Part shown: positions 31,681 to 63,411 of the stretch, piece by piece | Layout of the letters: the number at the start of each line of letters is the position of its first letter | Position numbering within the stretch: the first letter of the stretch is position 1 | Assembly (NCBI GenBank): GCA_016926255.1 | Contig: JAFGOY010000011.1 | Location: 70,399 to 134,398, forward strand | Direction of reading: 5' to 3' | Source of the DNA: Anaerolineae bacterium | Lineage (GTDB): Bacteria > Chloroflexota > Anaerolineae > Aggregatilineales > UBA3940 | Length of the DNA: 64,000 nucleotides | Translations under genes and position numbers: made by a program | The notes under the pieces: model-generated | The model's database searches: none | What the model was told of the DNA's origin: nothing | Seen by the model: only the letters and a program-made list of their open reading frames with translations

Positions 31681-32757
31681 TTAAAAGCCTTTGACCCCCT
31701 TGTTGGCAACCTTCGAATCTTCGACATAGCGGCGCGGCATGGTCAGGCTGTTCCATCCGCCCGCTTCCTGCAAGGCGAAGGGGTCGGTGCCGCTTCGGGC
31801 GGCGTGGGTGGCCCAGTAGTGTCGACAGTCGTGGGCGCTCAACCCCGCGATGCCGATCTGCTTTCCCAGGTAGCGCACCCGCTTGGTGATCGCCCGCTCG
31901 GTCATCCCGGCACTGGTCAGTTCCCCGCCTTTTCGACTGCTGCGCAGCAGCGGGCCTTTGTCGGGCGCATCTCCGCCCATCATATAGGCATAGGCGGTCC
32001 GGAGCGTGTTGGCGGTCAGGGTGTGAACCTGCTCCTTGTCAACCTTTGGACGGTAAAAGCGCAGTTCACCGGTTTTTAGATCGATGTTCTCTACCTTGAT
32101 CAGCGCGACCTCACCGCAGCGGAGACCGTGTTCGAGCAGCAGGCACATCAGCAGCGCGTCACGCCGTCCCTGGGGCGTATCGGGCTGTTCGCGTAACTGC
32201 ACAGCTTGTTCGTGTGACAGGCGGGTCGGCTCTGACTTCTTATCACCAACACGGGTGACCCGCCGTTTCTGGTCGACGCGCTTGCTTTCTTTGTGGCTGA
32301 ACCCGGTGACCGTTCTGATCATGGCGTGTTCGGAGCCATCAATTGCCCCGGCCTTGAACGCCAGCCCTGCATATGTCTTGACGGTCGACAGGCGAACATT
32401 GACGCTGCCGACCGCGTAGCCGCCGGAGAGCATCCAGCGCTTGAAGCCCTCGACGATGCCCCAGGTCATCCCGTTCCAGGCATCGGGATCGGTTTGCAGT
32501 GCATCTGAATTGATCGGCACCCCGGCGTCGTTGAGAAAATCGGCAAACAGGCGGAGATCGGCTTTCTGGCGGCGGAGCGTGTTTTCGGCGCGACGGCTGA
32601 CGTAGTCGGCGAAAACGCCCTGCGCGGCGGCGAAGTTGGCCGCACGCCCGGCCTGGTGCAGCGCGAAGTTCTCGTATGGGGTCGCCGTGGCGAGCGACTT
32701 TTCCTCTTCGACGATTTCTCCGTGTATGATCATGTCATCGGATGGTGAAGTGGTCAT
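31681..32757 (-). CDS. Tyrosine recombinase/integrase (XerC/D-like), catalytically intact
   Basis: HGLRCGE (R), RPK (K), HDCRH (HxxR), GGW (H/W) and PRRY (Y), plus an N-terminal core-binding domain. Confidence 0.9.
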   Translation of the reverse strand: MTTSPSDDMIIHGEIVEEEKSLATATPYENFALHQAGRAANFAAAQGVFADYVSRRAENTLRRQKADLRLFADFLNDAGVPINSDALQTDPDAWNGMTWGIVEGFKRWMLSGGYAVGSVNVRLSTVKTYAGLAFKAGAIDGSEHAMIRTVTGFSHKESKRVDQKRRVTRVGDKKSEPTRLSHEQAVQLREQPDTPQGRRDALLMCLLLEHGLRCGEVALIKVENIDLKTGELRFYRPKVDKEQVHTLTANTLRTAYAYMMGGDAPDKGPLLRSSRKGGELTSAGMTERAITKRVRYLGKQIGIAGLSAHDCRHYWATHAARSGTDPFALQEAGGWNSLTMPRRYVEDSKVANKGVKGF

Positions 32758-38976: not shown

Positions 38977-39924
38977 TCAATTGCGGTCATCACTCACGGC
39001 AGCTATACGCGCTGGCCTCGGATTATCGCCACCCGGACGGCTCGGCCAGCCTTCCCGCTGCAAGGCCCGATCACCATCTGTTTCTTCCGTCTGATCGTGA
39101 AAGAGCACCTGATAAGTTGTATAGGGCAGGTCAATACCTGCTTCAGTTAACGCCTGAATGACAGCTTCGATGATGTGCGCCTGCATGTTAACCACGTTGC
39201 TGCGAACCGAGGATGTCCACCAGCGGGCGCGAATGTTGATGCTGCTTGACGTTAATTCCCAGACAAATGCTTCTGGCTTCGGCTCCTTCAATGTAAAATC
39301 TACTTCTTCGATTGTTTTGATAATCAACTGTTTGGCGAGTGAAATATCATCATTACACCCGATCCCGAAATCGTATTGAGAGCGGCGTATGGGGAAGGCC
39401 GTATTAACCGTCACCGACTGCGTGAACAGGTCGGAATTGGGAATGACAACCAACCGGCCATCGTACATTTTTATCAGAGTCGCGCGGGTCTGAATATCCT
39501 GTACGGTCCCTTCGTAGTCACGCACTACAATCTGATCACCGATCTTGAACGGCTGCGTAATAAACAGCAGAATCCCAGCCAGGAAATTCTGCAATATATC
39601 GCGGAAGGCAAATCCAATCGCTACGCCGCCTATGCCCAGCGTCTCAATCACTTGGGCAGCGGTAAAATTCGGGTAGATAATCGGCAGTGACACCAGCGCT
39701 CCGATCAGGATGATCACGGCACGTGTCAGGCGGCCCAGGACAAGTGAGGCGGTGGGTGGCATATTGGTCTGTTCTGAAATGCGCTGCACAAGACGTTTCA
39801 ACAGACTGGCTGCGATAAAAAATACGGCAAAGACAATAATTGCAACAATCAGGTTTGGCAGTTGTTCAATGATACTCAGAATCATCGACCTGACTTTATC
39901 AATAGCCGGTGTAAGATCAAACAT
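38977..39924 (-). CDS. mscS: Small-conductance mechanosensitive channel (MscS family)
   Basis: TM helices; GVAIGFAFRDILQNFLAG, QPFKIGD and IPNS motifs. Confidence 0.9.
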   Translation of the reverse strand: MFDLTPAIDKVRSMILSIIEQLPNLIVAIIVFAVFFIAASLLKRLVQRISEQTNMPPTASLVLGRLTRAVIILIGALVSLPIIYPNFTAAQVIETLGIGGVAIGFAFRDILQNFLAGILLFITQPFKIGDQIVVRDYEGTVQDIQTRATLIKMYDGRLVVIPNSDLFTQSVTVNTAFPIRRSQYDFGIGCNDDISLAKQLIIKTIEEVDFTLKEPKPEAFVWELTSSSINIRARWWTSSVRSNVVNMQAHIIEAVIQALTEAGIDLPYTTYQVLFHDQTEETDGDRALQREGWPSRPGGDNPRPARIAAVSDDRN

Positions 39925-40005
39925 TATTAGCTCCCTTTTTCTGCTCGATTGAGCAACTATCCCTGTCGTATAGAACTGGAGGTATAGTCCCAGAATGTTG
40001 ATGCC

Positions 40006-40983
40006 CTAATCTTCCAGGGCTTCTTCTTCGGCGGTTTTGGCGAGGCGGGCGAGCTTGGCGCTGGTCTCGCGCCAGGAGATGCGGCTCAGGCCGAGCTTCT
40101 GGCGAAGCTGGTCAGAGGGCATGTCATTCTGAAAATCACGCAGCGCGGATGTCCAGCGCAGGGTTTCAAAGGACATGCGCTCACGACTGACACCCGCCGC
40201 GTCAGCCACATCGCGGAGGACGTACTCCAGGTTGCGAGCGGTGCAGTCGAAGATGCTGCCTTTTGGCTGGCGCTGTTCGAGATACTCGTCGAGAACCTTC
40301 AACCATTCGGGGGCAACGCTGATCTTTCGCTCCTTATAGCGCATCTTGGGATTAGCGTAGCGAATCCAGATGAAAGGCGATTTTGGATCGGAGCGGTCGA
40401 TATCCCTGAGCGTCAGTTCCATGCATTCGCTCTTTTTGATCCCGGTCTGGAGCAGAAGCGTGAGCAGCAGCAGGGGGCGGGCATCGGGTTTTTCTTTGTC
40501 GGTGCGCATTGACTGCGAGACGAGCAGTGCCTGCTCAACATCTTCGGTGAAAAGAACTTTAGGCAGTGGACTGCTGACCGGCTTCTGGATGATCGCGTCG
40601 GCAGGGTCTTTGGCGATGGCACGTTCTTCATAAAGATAGCTGAAAAAGTTCTTGAGGGTCGTCACCCGGCGGGCGTAGGTTTTCGGGCTGCACGGTTTGC
40701 CGCGTTCGGTGAGCATCCAGTGCAGGAACTTGTTCAGATCGTCGGTTCCCAGCGAGCCGATGGCCCGCTTTTCCCCGGCCCAGGAACCAAGCAGGTTGAG
40801 ATCGCTCTTAAATGCCTTGATCGTATGAGGCGAAGCACCACTGAGTTTCAATGCAACCAGGTGGAACTCGACCGCTTTGGTGAACGGCGTATCCGGGTCA
40901 AGGGGGAGTTCGCCTTCCTGCTTCTCCTCCTCTGGAGCCTGAGGTTTTTCGCCGAACATGGAAAGCTGCGTGAAATCATCCAT
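40006..40983 (-). CDS. Tyrosine-recombinase-like protein with a degenerate active site
   Basis: XerD-like N-domain (SPHTIKAF..DL, SPKTYARRVTTLKNFFSYL, LPKVL). Catalytic R replaced by K (TGIKKSE), HxxR by ETLR, LGH by LGL, and no C-terminal Tyr. Probable start is ATG at 40983. Confidence 0.8.
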   Translation of the reverse strand: MDDFTQLSMFGEKPQAPEEEKQEGELPLDPDTPFTKAVEFHLVALKLSGASPHTIKAFKSDLNLLGSWAGEKRAIGSLGTDDLNKFLHWMLTERGKPCSPKTYARRVTTLKNFFSYLYEERAIAKDPADAIIQKPVSSPLPKVLFTEDVEQALLVSQSMRTDKEKPDARPLLLLTLLLQTGIKKSECMELTLRDIDRSDPKSPFIWIRYANPKMRYKERKISVAPEWLKVLDEYLEQRQPKGSIFDCTARNLEYVLRDVADAAGVSRERMSFETLRWTSALRDFQNDMPSDQLRQKLGLSRISWRETSAKLARLAKTAEEEALED

Positions 40984-41148
40984 CACGGTGCCCTTTCCCT
41001 TCAAAGTGCATCGAACGCGGTAGAAGAACGCTGGATTTTCGCCGCAAAGGAGATTGATTCCGTTGTGCGCCTGGACAGAAATCGACCGGCTTTACGCCAT
41101 TCCGATCTCTATCACTGAGCAGTTTCGTTCAGGGACACTGCCTGCTTT

Positions 41149-42270
41149 CTAGTCTAGCCAGAAAACCTCAGACAGCAAGGTGCTGATCTTATTCGTGTCG
41201 GGGATCAGGACGGAAGCACCTGCCGATGTCGTATACGGGGAGACGTAATCGGAGTTGATCACACCGGAGCGGATATCGTCGCGGGAGATGTCTTCGGCGA
41301 GAAGGGCGAGGCTGACTATTTCTTCAAGGGTCATATTGGTGGTGATGCTGTCACTCATCGTCTGATAAAGCACCGGGGATTTTTCGACGAGGGTTGGCAA
41401 CATCGAAAAGCTGATGACCCGGTCACGGATAGCAAAGAGGATATCCTGCTGACGCTGGGCGCGGTTGAAGTCGCTGTCGGTATAGCGGGTCCGGGCGTAT
41501 TTCAACGCCGTTTCGCCATCCAGGTGCTGCTGCCCGGCGGCGATATAAAACGGATCGTATCCATAGTACATATCGGGATAATTCGAGTCGTAAATCTCTC
41601 TCGGTACGTAGATATCGATCCCGCCAATCTCGTCGACAAGGGTGACGAAAGCATCAAATTCAACCAGGACGTAGTAGTTGACGTGCACACCCAGGTTGTA
41701 CTGGATCGTCTCGATGGTCAGGTTGCCGCCGCCCAGAGGATAGGCCGTATTGATACGGTTGAGGCCGTAGCCCGGAATATCGACATAAAGATCGCGGGGG
41801 ATGGAAATCACGCCGCCGACTTTTTCTTTGGGATCGACCATCAGCAGCATCATCGAGTCGGTGCGAGGGCGTGCCCCGCCGCGCTCGGACGGACGGGTAT
41901 CGGCACCGAGCAGGAGGATCGTCACACGCTCTTCACCCTCCCAGACATGCGCATTGCCGACATCGAGCGTCGGGGCCAGGAATTCGGGGTTGGGTGTGGC
42001 ATTCGGGATGGCGGTCGGGATACCCTCCATTGCGGCGAAGGGGGTAGACCCCACGAGATAACGCAGGAAAAACGCGACAAGCAGACTCAGTGCAATCGTC
42101 CCGGCGAACAGTCCCACCATACCAAAAACCGTGCCGATTGGCCCCAGCTTCGGGATGCGTGTGTGGGCGACTAGCCTGTTCAGGCTCTTAAATGGCCCCT
42201 GTTTAGGCAGCGCAAAGACGGGCCTTCTGGTAGATTTCGTTTCCGGGTGTGCTGGAGTCTGCTGTTCCAT
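41149..42270 (-). CDS. LCP (LytR-CpsA-Psr) family cell-envelope ligase
   Basis: TM helix; ILLLGAD, RTDSMML, SIPRDLYV, ALKYARTR and DFNRAQRQQ motifs. Confidence 0.92.
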   Translation of the reverse strand: MEQQTPAHPETKSTRRPVFALPKQGPFKSLNRLVAHTRIPKLGPIGTVFGMVGLFAGTIALSLLVAFFLRYLVGSTPFAAMEGIPTAIPNATPNPEFLAPTLDVGNAHVWEGEERVTILLLGADTRPSERGGARPRTDSMMLLMVDPKEKVGGVISIPRDLYVDIPGYGLNRINTAYPLGGGNLTIETIQYNLGVHVNYYVLVEFDAFVTLVDEIGGIDIYVPREIYDSNYPDMYYGYDPFYIAAGQQHLDGETALKYARTRYTDSDFNRAQRQQDILFAIRDRVISFSMLPTLVEKSPVLYQTMSDSITTNMTLEEIVSLALLAEDISRDDIRSGVINSDYVSPYTTSAGASVLIPDTNKISTLLSEVFWLD

Positions 42271-60585: not shown

Positions 60586-60612
60586 GAGTTGTTTTTAGCC
60601 TGGAGGGTGAGA

Positions 60613-63411
60613 ATGTCTGAGCATACCGGCAAACGATTGGTTCTGATCGACGGGCATGGGCTGGCCTACCGGATGTTTTACGCAATTCAGGCCGGAATGT
60701 CCACACGGGCCGGTGAGCCGACCAACGCGACCTACGGTTTTACCCGCCAGGTTCTGAGCCTGATCACCAGCGACGATCCGCCGGACTACCTTGCCGTCAG
60801 CTTCGACGTTGGAAAGACCTTCCGCGATGAGATGTTCGACGATTACAAAGCCACCCGCGAGAAGATGCCCGACGACCTGAGCTTGCAGATCGGGCGAATA
60901 CAGCAGGTGCTCGACGCGCTGAATGTCCCTCACATCGAAATCGAGGGCTATGAAGCCGACGACGTGCTGGGGACAGTCGCGCGGCTGGCCGGGGAGATGG
61001 GTGTCGAAACGCTGATCATTACCGGTGACAAAGACCTGCTGCAACTGGTCAACGAGCATACGCTGGTGCAGCTTCCGGGCCGCAAATCGGGGGAGGACGA
61101 GGTTTACGACATTGATGCCGTGCGGGAGAAAATGGGGATCGCCCCGGCGCAGATTGTCGATTATAAGGCGCTGGTGGGCGACAAATCAGACAATATTCCA
61201 GGCGTGGCCGGTATTGGGGACAAATCGGCAGTATCGCTGCTGAACGAGTACGGCAGTGTGCAGGCGATCTACGAGAACCTCGACGCGATCTCCAGCACCC
61301 GCGCCCGCAATGCATTGATCGGACAGGAAGAGAACGCCGATCTCAGCTACCGGCTGGCGAAGATCGTTACCGACGTGCCGCTCGAATTCGATCTAGAAGC
61401 CTGCCACACGCAGGATTTCGATGTGGATCAGGTGGCGGAAATCTTCCAGGAACTGGAGTTCCGCTCGTTCCTGCGACAGATTCGGGGGACGGATGTTGAG
61501 GCTGCTTCCCCTGCCCCCGGACAGCAGCTTTCCCTTTTCGGCGGAATGATGGGTATCGATGCACCTGCGGCGTCAAACGAATCGGTGACGGAGACACATA
61601 TCATCCGTGACGAAGCGGCGCTCGACGCGCTGGTCAAACGGCTGAACGGCGTAAGGGAAATCGCTTTCGACACAGAAACCACGTCGACCGACCAGATGCA
61701 GGCGCGGCTGGTCGGGATTTCGCTGGCAGTCGAGCCGGGCGAGGCGTATTACATCCCGGTCGGGCACAGCCTGAGTGACGAAGTTCAACTGCCGCTCGAC
61801 CTGGTTATTAAGAAGCTGACACCCCCAATGACCAACCCGGATATCGTCAAGATTGGGCACAACATCAAGTACGACGCGGTGGTGCTGGAACGGCACGGCC
61901 TTAGCGTCACCCCGTTGAGCGTCGATACGATGATCGGCGAATGGCTGCTGCACCCGGAAGCCAGGCTGGGCTTGAAGGCGCTTGCCTTTTCCCTGCTGGG
62001 CGTCGAGATGACCGAGATCAGCGATTTGATCGGCAAGGGAGCCAGGCAGATTACATTCGACCTTGTGCCGGTCGAGCAGGGAGCAGCTTATGCTGCCGCC
62101 GATGCCGACATGACGCTGCGTCTCTCCGAGCCGATACGGGCGGAGATCGAAGAGCAGGAGATTGGAAAGCTGTTCTACGAGATCGAGATGCCGCTGGTCG
62201 GGGTGCTATCGGCGATGGAGCAGGCCGGGGTGCTGGTCGATGTAGGCTTCCTCGAAAATCTGTCGGCAGAACTGGGCGAGCAGTTGGGCGACCGGGTTCG
62301 GCAGGTTTATGAGATCGTGGGCTATGACTTCAACCTCAACTCGACGCAGCAGTTGAGCGATGCGCTGTTCAAGAACCTTCAACTCCCAACGCAGGGATTA
62401 CGCAAGACCAAGAGCGGTCACTACTCGACCGCCGCCGACGTGCTCGAAGGGCTGCGCGATCAGGATACCACCGGCGTGATCGAGGCGATTCTCGACTACC
62501 GCGAGATGGAAAAGCTCCGCTCGACCTACCTCGATGCGCTGCCGCAGCTTGTCAACCCGGAGACGGGACGAATCCACACCTCGTTCAACCAGACGGGGAC
62601 GGTCACCGGGCGGATCAGCTCCAGCGATCCGAATCTGCAAAACATCCCGATCCGCAGCGAGGTGGGCCGCCGGGTGCGTGAGGCTTTTGTCGCCGCGTCG
62701 GGCCATATGCTGATCGGCGCGGACTATTCACAGGTCGAGCTGCGGGTGATGGCGCACATGGCCGATGATCCGGCGCTGCGGCAGGCGTTCCTGGATGATC
62801 AGGACATCCACGCCACGACCGCCGCAACGGTGTTCAACATTCCCCTGAACGAGGTGACGCCCAACCAGCGCAGTTTCGCCAAGGCGGTAAACTTCGGGCT
62901 GATGTACGGCATGGGGGCTTTCCGGCTGGCACGGGACTCGGAACTGACGCTGTCCGAGTCCGAGGCATTCATCAAGACCTACTTCGAACGGTTCCCAAAA
63001 GTGCGGGAATACCTCGACGGGACGCGCAGGCAGGCCGCTGAATGTGGTTATGTCGAGACACTGCTGGGGCGTCGGCGGTACTTCCCGATCCTGTCCTCGA
63101 CCGACACCAGCCAGCGGGCAAACATCGAGCGGCGGGCGGCGGAGCGCGAAGCGGTCAACATGCCGATCCAGGGCACTGCTGCTGACATCATCAAGATTGC
63201 GATGATCAGGCTGCATGATGCGCTGCGTGATCGCGGACTGAGCGGGCAAATGCTGATCCAGGTACATGACGAGCTAATCCTCGAAGCGCCGGAAGACGAG
63301 ATCGAAGAGACGGCGGCGCTGGTCAAAAATGTAATGGAGAACGCGTACCCGCTTTCGGTGCCGCTCAAGGTCGATGCGCATGTCGGAGAGAACTGGGGCG
63401 AGTTGAAGTAA
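60613..63411 (+). CDS. polA: DNA polymerase I
   Basis: 5'-exonuclease (LIDGH, YEADD), 3'-exonuclease (FDTET), polymerase (DYSQVELR, AKAVNFGLMYG, QVHDEL); ATG at 60613 with a GGAGG RBS. Confidence 0.98.
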   Translation: MSEHTGKRLVLIDGHGLAYRMFYAIQAGMSTRAGEPTNATYGFTRQVLSLITSDDPPDYLAVSFDVGKTFRDEMFDDYKATREKMPDDLSLQIGRIQQVLDALNVPHIEIEGYEADDVLGTVARLAGEMGVETLIITGDKDLLQLVNEHTLVQLPGRKSGEDEVYDIDAVREKMGIAPAQIVDYKALVGDKSDNIPGVAGIGDKSAVSLLNEYGSVQAIYENLDAISSTRARNALIGQEENADLSYRLAKIVTDVPLEFDLEACHTQDFDVDQVAEIFQELEFRSFLRQIRGTDVEAASPAPGQQLSLFGGMMGIDAPAASNESVTETHIIRDEAALDALVKRLNGVREIAFDTETTSTDQMQARLVGISLAVEPGEAYYIPVGHSLSDEVQLPLDLVIKKLTPPMTNPDIVKIGHNIKYDAVVLERHGLSVTPLSVDTMIGEWLLHPEARLGLKALAFSLLGVEMTEISDLIGKGARQITFDLVPVEQGAAYAAADADMTLRLSEPIRAEIEEQEIGKLFYEIEMPLVGVLSAMEQAGVLVDVGFLENLSAELGEQLGDRVRQVYEIVGYDFNLNSTQQLSDALFKNLQLPTQGLRKTKSGHYSTAADVLEGLRDQDTTGVIEAILDYREMEKLRSTYLDALPQLVNPETGRIHTSFNQTGTVTGRISSSDPNLQNIPIRSEVGRRVREAFVAASGHMLIGADYSQVELRVMAHMADDPALRQAFLDDQDIHATTAATVFNIPLNEVTPNQRSFAKAVNFGLMYGMGAFRLARDSELTLSESEAFIKTYFERFPKVREYLDGTRRQAAECGYVETLLGRRRYFPILSSTDTSQRANIERRAAEREAVNMPIQGTAADIIKIAMIRLHDALRDRGLSGQMLIQVHDELILEAPEDEIEETAALVKNVMENAYPLSVPLKVDAHVGENWGELK

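Follow-up and report, generated by a model that had tools for sequence, protein, structure and literature searches.

The XerD and XerC resolvases (TIGR02225 and TIGR02224; E. coli XerD, 1a0p) are the best sequence matches of the protein described here. A precedent for a Xer protein that acts without recombination, as a site-specific DNA-bound factor of chromosome organisation, has been reported from Bacillus subtilis, where XerD at XDS sites unloads Smc-ScpAB (Karaboja et al. 2021, as cited in PMC11894783). The DNA-binding scaffold of tyrosine recombinases was also reported to be reused without recombination in domesticated derivatives such as Crypton-derived genes, ALOG domains and the recombinase-derived target selectors of Tn7 (PMC3212892, PMC3537659, PMC10293859). 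At the sliding clamp, ImuB is described as a clamp-binding polymerase of the Y family that lacks catalytic activity (PMC10421592, PMC11791113), and Hda, which acts in the regulatory inactivation of DnaA, as carrying an N-terminal clamp-binding motif (PMC5397184). Here we describe a gene in a 64,000-nucleotide stretch of an Anaerolineae bacterium genome (contig JAFGOY010000011.1; this whole stretch is called the window) whose product would combine a domesticated recombinase scaffold with a clamp-tethered dead enzyme. Its product is best explained as a protein with a tyrosine-recombinase fold that would be unable to cleave DNA, and our analysis makes it probable that this is a non-catalytic, Xer-derived DNA-binding protein tethered to the sliding clamp DnaN by a flexible N-terminal tail.

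The gene is an intact 325-codon frame on the minus strand that opens with an ATG start (MDDFTQLSMFGEKPQ) and ends in a terminal stop. A TTG at 41004 is a possible alternative start that would add seven residues, but most homologues begin with M-x-D-x-x-Q, in favour of the ATG. The gene and its domains are laid out as follows:

40006..40983, minus strand: whole gene, Xer-like protein predicted to be catalytically dead (hereafter the dead protein), 325 residues plus stop codon (open reading frame, AlphaFold2 model, Foldseek)
40912..40983, minus strand: N-terminal tail predicted to be disordered, residues 1-24 (low pLDDT; variable linker in the family)
40954..40968, minus strand: QLSMF, residues 6-10, motif of the beta-clamp-binding type (consensus match, family conservation)
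40594..40887, minus strand: core-binding (SAM-like) domain, about residues 33-130 (PF02899; helices 34-119 in the model; basic residues K101, R105, R106 and K111)
40012..40548, minus strand: catalytic-domain fold without a catalytic centre, about residues 146-324 (PF00589, AlphaFold2 model, Foldseek, MAFFT alignment)

Pfam matched the N-terminal core-binding domain PF02899 to residues 49-120 (E 3.5e-10); its match of the integrase catalytic domain PF00589 to residues 158-303 was weak (E 6.9e-08). The best NCBIfam matches were XerD TIGR02225 at 88.4 bits (cut-off 329.6) and XerC TIGR02224 at 88.0 bits (cut-off 335.15), and both alignments end at residue 241, ahead of box II. An AlphaFold2 model of the 325-residue protein, built from an alignment of 35 family sequences, reached a mean pLDDT of 90.3 and a pTM of 0.71, with pLDDT below 50 at residues 1-9 and 11-24, so that the tail is predicted to be disordered. 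Comparison of the model with the PDB by Foldseek gave 78 matches at E <= 0.001; the top ones were XerA, XerH, the Tn1549 integrase, Cre and lambda Int, with a probability of 1.00 to XerA, XerH, Cre and lambda Int. Because the model is confident and resembles these structures, we assign to the dead protein, on the strength of its predicted structure, the two-domain fold of tyrosine recombinases, in the same domain order as in XerD and XerC. Matches in the ESM Atlas were to generic integrase clusters only, with Chloroflexota the most frequent source.

The resemblance to an active recombinase ends at the catalytic centre. Catalytic positions were mapped with HMM alignments to E. coli XerD 1a0p and with a MAFFT alignment to six canonical XerC/XerD sequences from other Chloroflexota genomes, and all three alignments gave the same mapping. 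Residue counts across the family refer to 130 sequences, namely the window protein and 129 genome loci, down to about 27% identity. The positions concerned are:

40435..40437, minus strand: K183 in place of the catalytic Arg-I (GIKKSE against G[ML]R[VA][ST]E); K in 129 of 130
40333..40335, minus strand: K217, the beta-hairpin Lys, retained (YKER against GxKER); K in 113, R in 15 and Q in 2 of 130
40156..40167, minus strand: E273-T-L-R276, box II, where Glu takes the place of His-II and Arg-II is kept; E, D or Q at position 273 in 129 of 130, R276 in 130 of 130
40087..40089, minus strand: L299 in place of His/Trp-III (LGLS against LGH[AS]); L, I or V in 129 of 130
40060..40062, minus strand: S308 at the position of the Tyr nucleophile (ETS against Q[IV]Y); ungapped in the MAFFT alignment with the six XerC/XerD sequences

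The dead protein thus reads K183-K217-E273-R276-L299-S308 where XerC and XerD have R-K-H-R-H-Y: four of the six catalytic positions are changed, the Tyr nucleophile among them, and only K217 and R276 are retained, together with the structural Glu of box I. Directly after R276 stands W277, where canonical Xer proteins have His. The nucleophile position varies freely in the family (K 50, S 25, F 13, R 12, Y 2), and no Tyr occurs among residues 290-325, the last 36 of the dead protein. In further contrast to XerC and XerD, the MAFFT alignment shows that about 14 residues preceding the 'TRQ' helix are missing from the family and that it carries an insertion in the beta2-beta3 region. The initial annotation of this gene had reported a full-length frame with Arg replaced by Lys, His by Glu and His/Trp by Leu and with no nucleophilic Tyr, and three alignments confirm these substitutions; the retention of Arg-II and of the catalytic Lys was missing from its description.

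These residues bear on whether the protein might still be an enzyme, either a recombinase or a topoisomerase, acting through a different nucleophile or through a Tyr provided in trans. Both K217 and R276 remain in place, and a phosphate contact by K183 is still possible; in Cre, the R173K substitution was reported to be inactive in vitro and yet to recombine in vivo (PMC2943603). In members of the Ktedonobacteria type, moreover, the last helix bears a conserved Tyr three residues beyond the canonical position (EKYRKL), which could suit such an enzyme. This Tyr is, however, Leu in Anaerolineae members, the canonical Tyr position is mostly K, S, F or R, and His-II and His/Trp-III are replaced as well. 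Every substitution of the nucleophilic Tyr of Cre (Tyr324) was reported to be inactive (PMC2943603). We therefore regard residual enzymatic activity as very improbable.

The loss of several catalytic residues could also be the mark of a pseudogene, that is of a decaying copy of a Xer recombinase. A comparison with the closest homologue, which is 92% identical in nucleotides, showed 67 synonymous and 12 non-synonymous differences in 316 codons and hence a dN/dS of 0.042, and 34 columns are at least 95% conserved across the 130 sequences. The gene is thus under strong purifying selection. In a sample of 301 Chloroflexota genomes the family was found in 71, with one match each time, and it is present as a single copy in all 34 genomes of the same class, the window's own genome counted; whole families of the phylum lacked the protein in this sample (for example 0/13, 0/15, 0/18 and 0/17). 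With its intact frame, single-copy occurrence and well-predicted fold the gene is not decaying, and the pseudogene explanation is refuted. The initial annotation had proposed exaptation rather than decay, and had asked whether close orthologues keep R-H-R-H-Y. They do not, since K183 is found in nearly every member and a Tyr at the nucleophile position in two, which favours exaptation, as do the low dN/dS, the monophyly described below, the single-copy vertical distribution and the conservation of the substituted residues themselves. A conserved pair of cysteines, C98 and C247, was considered as a metal or disulfide site and rejected, as both are replaced by Pro or Trp in other lineages.

The family is widespread beyond this sample. 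The best 120 homologues in a search of 5.8 billion proteins share 51-96% identity with the dead protein, and a profile search of 1.84 billion representatives gave 169 representative clusters at E <= 1e-30. A pattern scan of species genomes located at least 582 loci, of which 80 were kept, with titles such as Anaerolineae, Promineifilaceae, Ardenticatenaceae, Caldilineaceae, Thermoflexales and similar. When a distant member served as query, a further scan added 67 Ktedonobacteria loci, among them those of the cultured Thermogemmatispora, Ktedonobacter racemifer, Thermosporothrix hazakensis and Ktedonosporobacter rubrisoli. A quick maximum-likelihood tree was built from 38 rows (23 dead and 15 active proteins, with SH-aLRT as the only support measure). 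In it the dead proteins form one clade, with a support of 99 and a stem 1.28 long, that is separate from the clades of XerC and XerD; the sister group of this clade falls among open forks, and several active rows sit on long branches. The best explanation of these sequence comparisons is an old, vertically inherited offshoot of Xer-type tyrosine recombinases. The domesticated derivatives cited above are eukaryotic genes or transposon-borne selectors and differ in this respect from the dead protein, which is encoded by a single-copy bacterial chromosomal gene and has a clamp-type tail.

Eleven basic residues are at least 95% conserved across the 130 sequences (K101, R105, R106, K111, R169, K183, K184, R219, R250, R276 and R294), which makes it plausible that the dead protein binds DNA.

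The N-terminal tail is the second feature that sets the dead protein apart from XerC and XerD. Clamp-binding motifs are reported to follow the general consensus QL(D/S)LF and to lie mostly in flexible termini (PMC6511837), and the consensus is alternatively given as QLxLF (PMC4549789). QLSMF, residues 6-10 of the dead protein, matches the former within a tail predicted to be flexible, and we confirmed its placement at the N-terminus by the initial annotation. Q6 is invariant in 35/35 aligned sequences, and the next 20 residues or so cannot be aligned. The motif was counted in 269 family proteins, 223 of which are covered at the N-terminus: the tail has the form Q..[LMIV]F in 154 of these 223, a looser form in 16 and none in 53. 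The commonest forms among the 154 strict motifs are QLPLF (69), QLSLF (17) and QLSMF (15). The 130 genome-derived members comprise 64 with a strict motif, 30 with variants (QQPLIP, QPLLIP, QPQLI, QPELL) and 36 with none; here the linker between motif and domain ranges from 12 to 69 residues (median 21.5) and is variable in sequence. Q..LF is found in 56 of the 67 Ktedonobacteria loci, members of other classes at about 30% identity have QPSLF, QRSLF, QNTLF, QLALF or QLTLF, and the motif is present in the deepest branches of the 38-row tree. Variants of the QxxLIP type such as QQPLIP and QPLLIP are similar to the clamp motif of E. coli MutL, reported as QPLLIP (PMC6511837). Several of the 53 motif-less homologues carry the near-variants QLSFF, DLPLF, QLSLPSL or QLPLPGL, and some are truncated records. 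We take QLSLPSL and QLPLPGL to resemble the hexapeptide forms of the clamp motif.

The same genome offers a background against which this match can be judged. Among 3269 crude open reading frames, there are 8 instances of QL[SDP][LM]F, one of them in the first 30 residues of a protein, and 21 of Q[LM]x[LM]F, of which only the one in the dead protein falls within that N-terminal range. Comparable motifs are found in established types of clamp partner: DnaE has an internal GQMSLFGD, MutS has PPQLALFD after domain V, and Pol I (window 60589-63411, plus strand, 940 residues) has GQQLSLFGG at about 61525-61539, in the linker that joins its 5'-nuclease domain to the 3'-5' exonuclease domain, which is likely to be a clamp-binding motif. 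Because the motifs of DnaE, MutS and Pol I lie where clamp motifs are expected, the clamp partners of this organism appear to use the canonical motif, and the tail of the dead protein is a close match to it. On these grounds we think it likely that the tail binds the clamp. In the same set, two radical-SAM proteins, L151 (G000:C19:77016-78188) and L152 (G000:C82:10242-11120), end in QMSLFD and QLPLFE, and one of them also has HhH domains; these clamp-type motifs at the very C-terminus, likewise placed as expected of such motifs, suggest clamp-linked radical-SAM DNA enzymes.

Taken together these observations lead us to propose the following mechanism. The N-terminal tail would dock in the hydrophobic cleft of the DnaN sliding clamp, in a mode like that of the N-terminal motif of Hda and the motifs of DnaE, Pol I and MutS, and the protein would thereby be delivered to DNA-loaded clamps at or behind replication forks. 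The recombinase-like body would then bind a DNA site or structure, with K183, K217 and R276 still gripping the backbone phosphate, and the bound protein would be a structural or regulatory factor without strand exchange. Candidate roles, suggested by analogy, are chromosome organisation or segregation as for XerD at XDS sites, an adaptor function like that of ImuB, or the binding of junctions. XerD of B. subtilis keeps its full recombinase activity and has this other task in addition, whereas catalysis appears to be gone in the dead protein; no link to SMC came to light in the window, where no test was aimed at one. The likeness to Hda, as far as the cited description goes, lies in a clamp-type motif at the extreme N-terminus of a protein of DNA metabolism that acts on DNA-loaded clamps, but Hda is an AAA+ paralogue of DnaA with an unrelated fold. 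No Hda above cut-off and no YabA was found in this genome, which is context and not evidence that the dead protein replaces them. With ImuB the dead protein would share the retention of a dead enzyme as a clamp-tethered adaptor; fold and pathway differ, and for ImuB the partners ImuA' and DnaE2 are described as known.

Several observations weigh against this proposal. The strict motif is missing in 53 of the 223 homologues and in 11 of the 67 Ktedonobacteria loci, even if some of these are variants or truncated records, and short hydrophobic motifs may serve other partners. The motif-less members belong mainly to one lineage, families f3 and f4, whose proteins (start ..AHIT..) begin only 10-15 residues before the core-binding domain and so have no tail; we looked for a compensating C-terminal clamp motif in these tail-less members and saw none. 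Since this lineage is nested within tail-bearing clades in the 38-row tree, the tail looks to be ancestral and to have been lost there secondarily. The initial annotation had made conservation of QLxLF a check on its proposal, and the comparison lends the clamp motif strong support, as it is kept in the majority of the homologues with a covered N-terminus, in 64 of the 130 genome-derived members and in most Ktedonobacteria loci, although it is absent from this whole nested subclade. As the protein is still conserved in the tail-less subclade, clamp docking cannot be essential to its core function. Moreover, the neighbouring genes, described below, give no hint of replication, and dnaA lies on contig C6 and dnaN on C9 of the assembly while the window lies on C23. 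A link to an 'origin-like region' of the window, which had been raised in the initial annotation, finds no support in these positions.

A body that works without the motif, as the tail-less subclade shows, would also suit an ordinary site-specific transcription factor, for example of cell-envelope genes, whose motif binds a partner other than DnaN or nothing at all. The gene context lends itself to such a reading. Upstream of the dead gene, on the same strand and after a gap of 165 nucleotides, lies a gene of the LCP (LytR_cpsA_psr) type (41149..42270, minus strand; PF03816, E 8.6e-42), and 13 of 27 Anaerolineae loci, the window included, have an LCP gene next to the dead gene; in other classes, a GH113-like gene of the same strand follows immediately downstream in 7 of 17 loci. 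These neighbours nevertheless vary by lineage, the convergent tilS that is adjacent in 16 of the 27 Anaerolineae loci is unrelated to the envelope, and adjacency inside one class may simply be inherited synteny. The tail-less orthologues have, within 70 nucleotides upstream of the start, a near-consensus TTGACA-N17-TAAACT followed by ATACG and a GGAGG site (L015, L021, L028, L030, L034, L036 and others), and because of this promoter-like element of their own they are probably separate transcription units, which also counts against this reading. Finally, the match of the tail to the clamp consensus is far above chance and tracks the genome's own clamp partners. We therefore consider a transcription factor of this kind unlikely. 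No neighbour is conserved across lineages, and the search for an operon partner yielded no candidate that held. A scan of the minus strand of the LCP gap found neither a promoter-like nor a terminator-like site. On its other side the dead gene is flanked by a gene for a mechanosensitive channel of the MscS type (38977-39924, minus strand), and a stretch similar to the promoter-like element of the tail-less orthologues, CTATACGA, lies upstream of this gene at about 39960-39975.

The origin of the family among Xer-type 'simple' recombinases, with XerD and XerC as its best NCBIfam matches, raises a further possibility, that the dead protein serves the active tyrosine recombinase of the cell as a non-catalytic subunit or as a regulator. 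The two might co-assemble on a dif-like site as XerC does with XerD, the dead protein contributing DNA binding and synapsis while its partner cuts, and the clamp motif could still time such an assembly to replication. This genome, which is 96% complete, has no XerC or XerD above cut-off, the best match to the XerD model scoring 92.1 bits against 329.6. That match is a different, active-looking recombinase on contig C62, with the dead protein ranked second at 88 bits. Also in favour of a pair, exactly one active-looking recombinase accompanies the dead one in each of two relatives, G076 (one contig) and G031 (98% complete). Against a partnership, G250 and G290 hold a canonical XerD-like gene (E 1.8e-96 and 5.2e-102) besides the dead protein, the active recombinases of different Anaerolineae genomes are heterogeneous and form no single clade beside the dead family, and an active recombinase gene was not found as a conserved neighbour. 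The tallies from which G250 and G290 are taken include five genomes flagged as unpublished, on which none of our claims depends. A dedicated recombinase partner thus seems to us improbable, and we continue to prefer a clamp-tethered DNA-binding protein. Two other tyrosine recombinase genes of this genome may be mentioned here. One, at window 31681-32757 (minus strand, 358 residues), lies about 7 kb from the dead gene and looks active (motifs GLRCGE, HDCRHY, GGW and RRYV); its branch in the tree is long, and its gene does not recur as a neighbour in other loci. The other, L004 (G000:C6:4989-5546), lies about 1 kb from dnaA (C6:6637-7980).

From an evolutionary point of view, we may speculate that in the filamentous Chloroflexota (Anaerolineae, Ktedonobacteria and allies) the family is a lineage-specific, replisome-coupled pseudo-recombinase, delivered by the clamp and holding a housekeeping job in replication or segregation. 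We put this forward tentatively, as an idea with less in its favour than clamp tethering itself. Possible jobs would be the unloading or positioning of SMC, the marking or terminating of replicated DNA, or the holding of four-way junctions at forks, and in model bacteria such jobs would be done by unrelated proteins. In the full-text literature we found neither a tyrosine-recombinase-like protein with a clamp motif nor a dead Xer family in Chloroflexota; in a survey of tyrosine recombinases (PMC8138268), the terms 'inactive' and 'Chloroflex' had no match in the main text. Source annotations call the homologues 'site-specific recombinase XerD' or 'site-specific integrase', and because databases label the family merely in this way, it is liable to be counted, wrongly, as a recombinase or a marker of mobile elements. 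Should the clamp link prove true, the family would be a rare bacterial example of the scaffold of an enzyme being converted into a DNA-binding factor coupled to replication, and one conserved throughout a phylum in which the biology of the chromosome has hardly been studied. The idea can be put to a direct test since there are cultured carriers (Thermogemmatispora, Ktedonobacter, Thermosporothrix and Ktedonosporobacter), and the tail-less subclade provides a natural control for the contribution of the clamp motif.

Elsewhere in the window, a giant open frame on the plus strand (3-31538) takes up half of the stretch; it counts more than 10,491 codons and continues beyond the 5' end.

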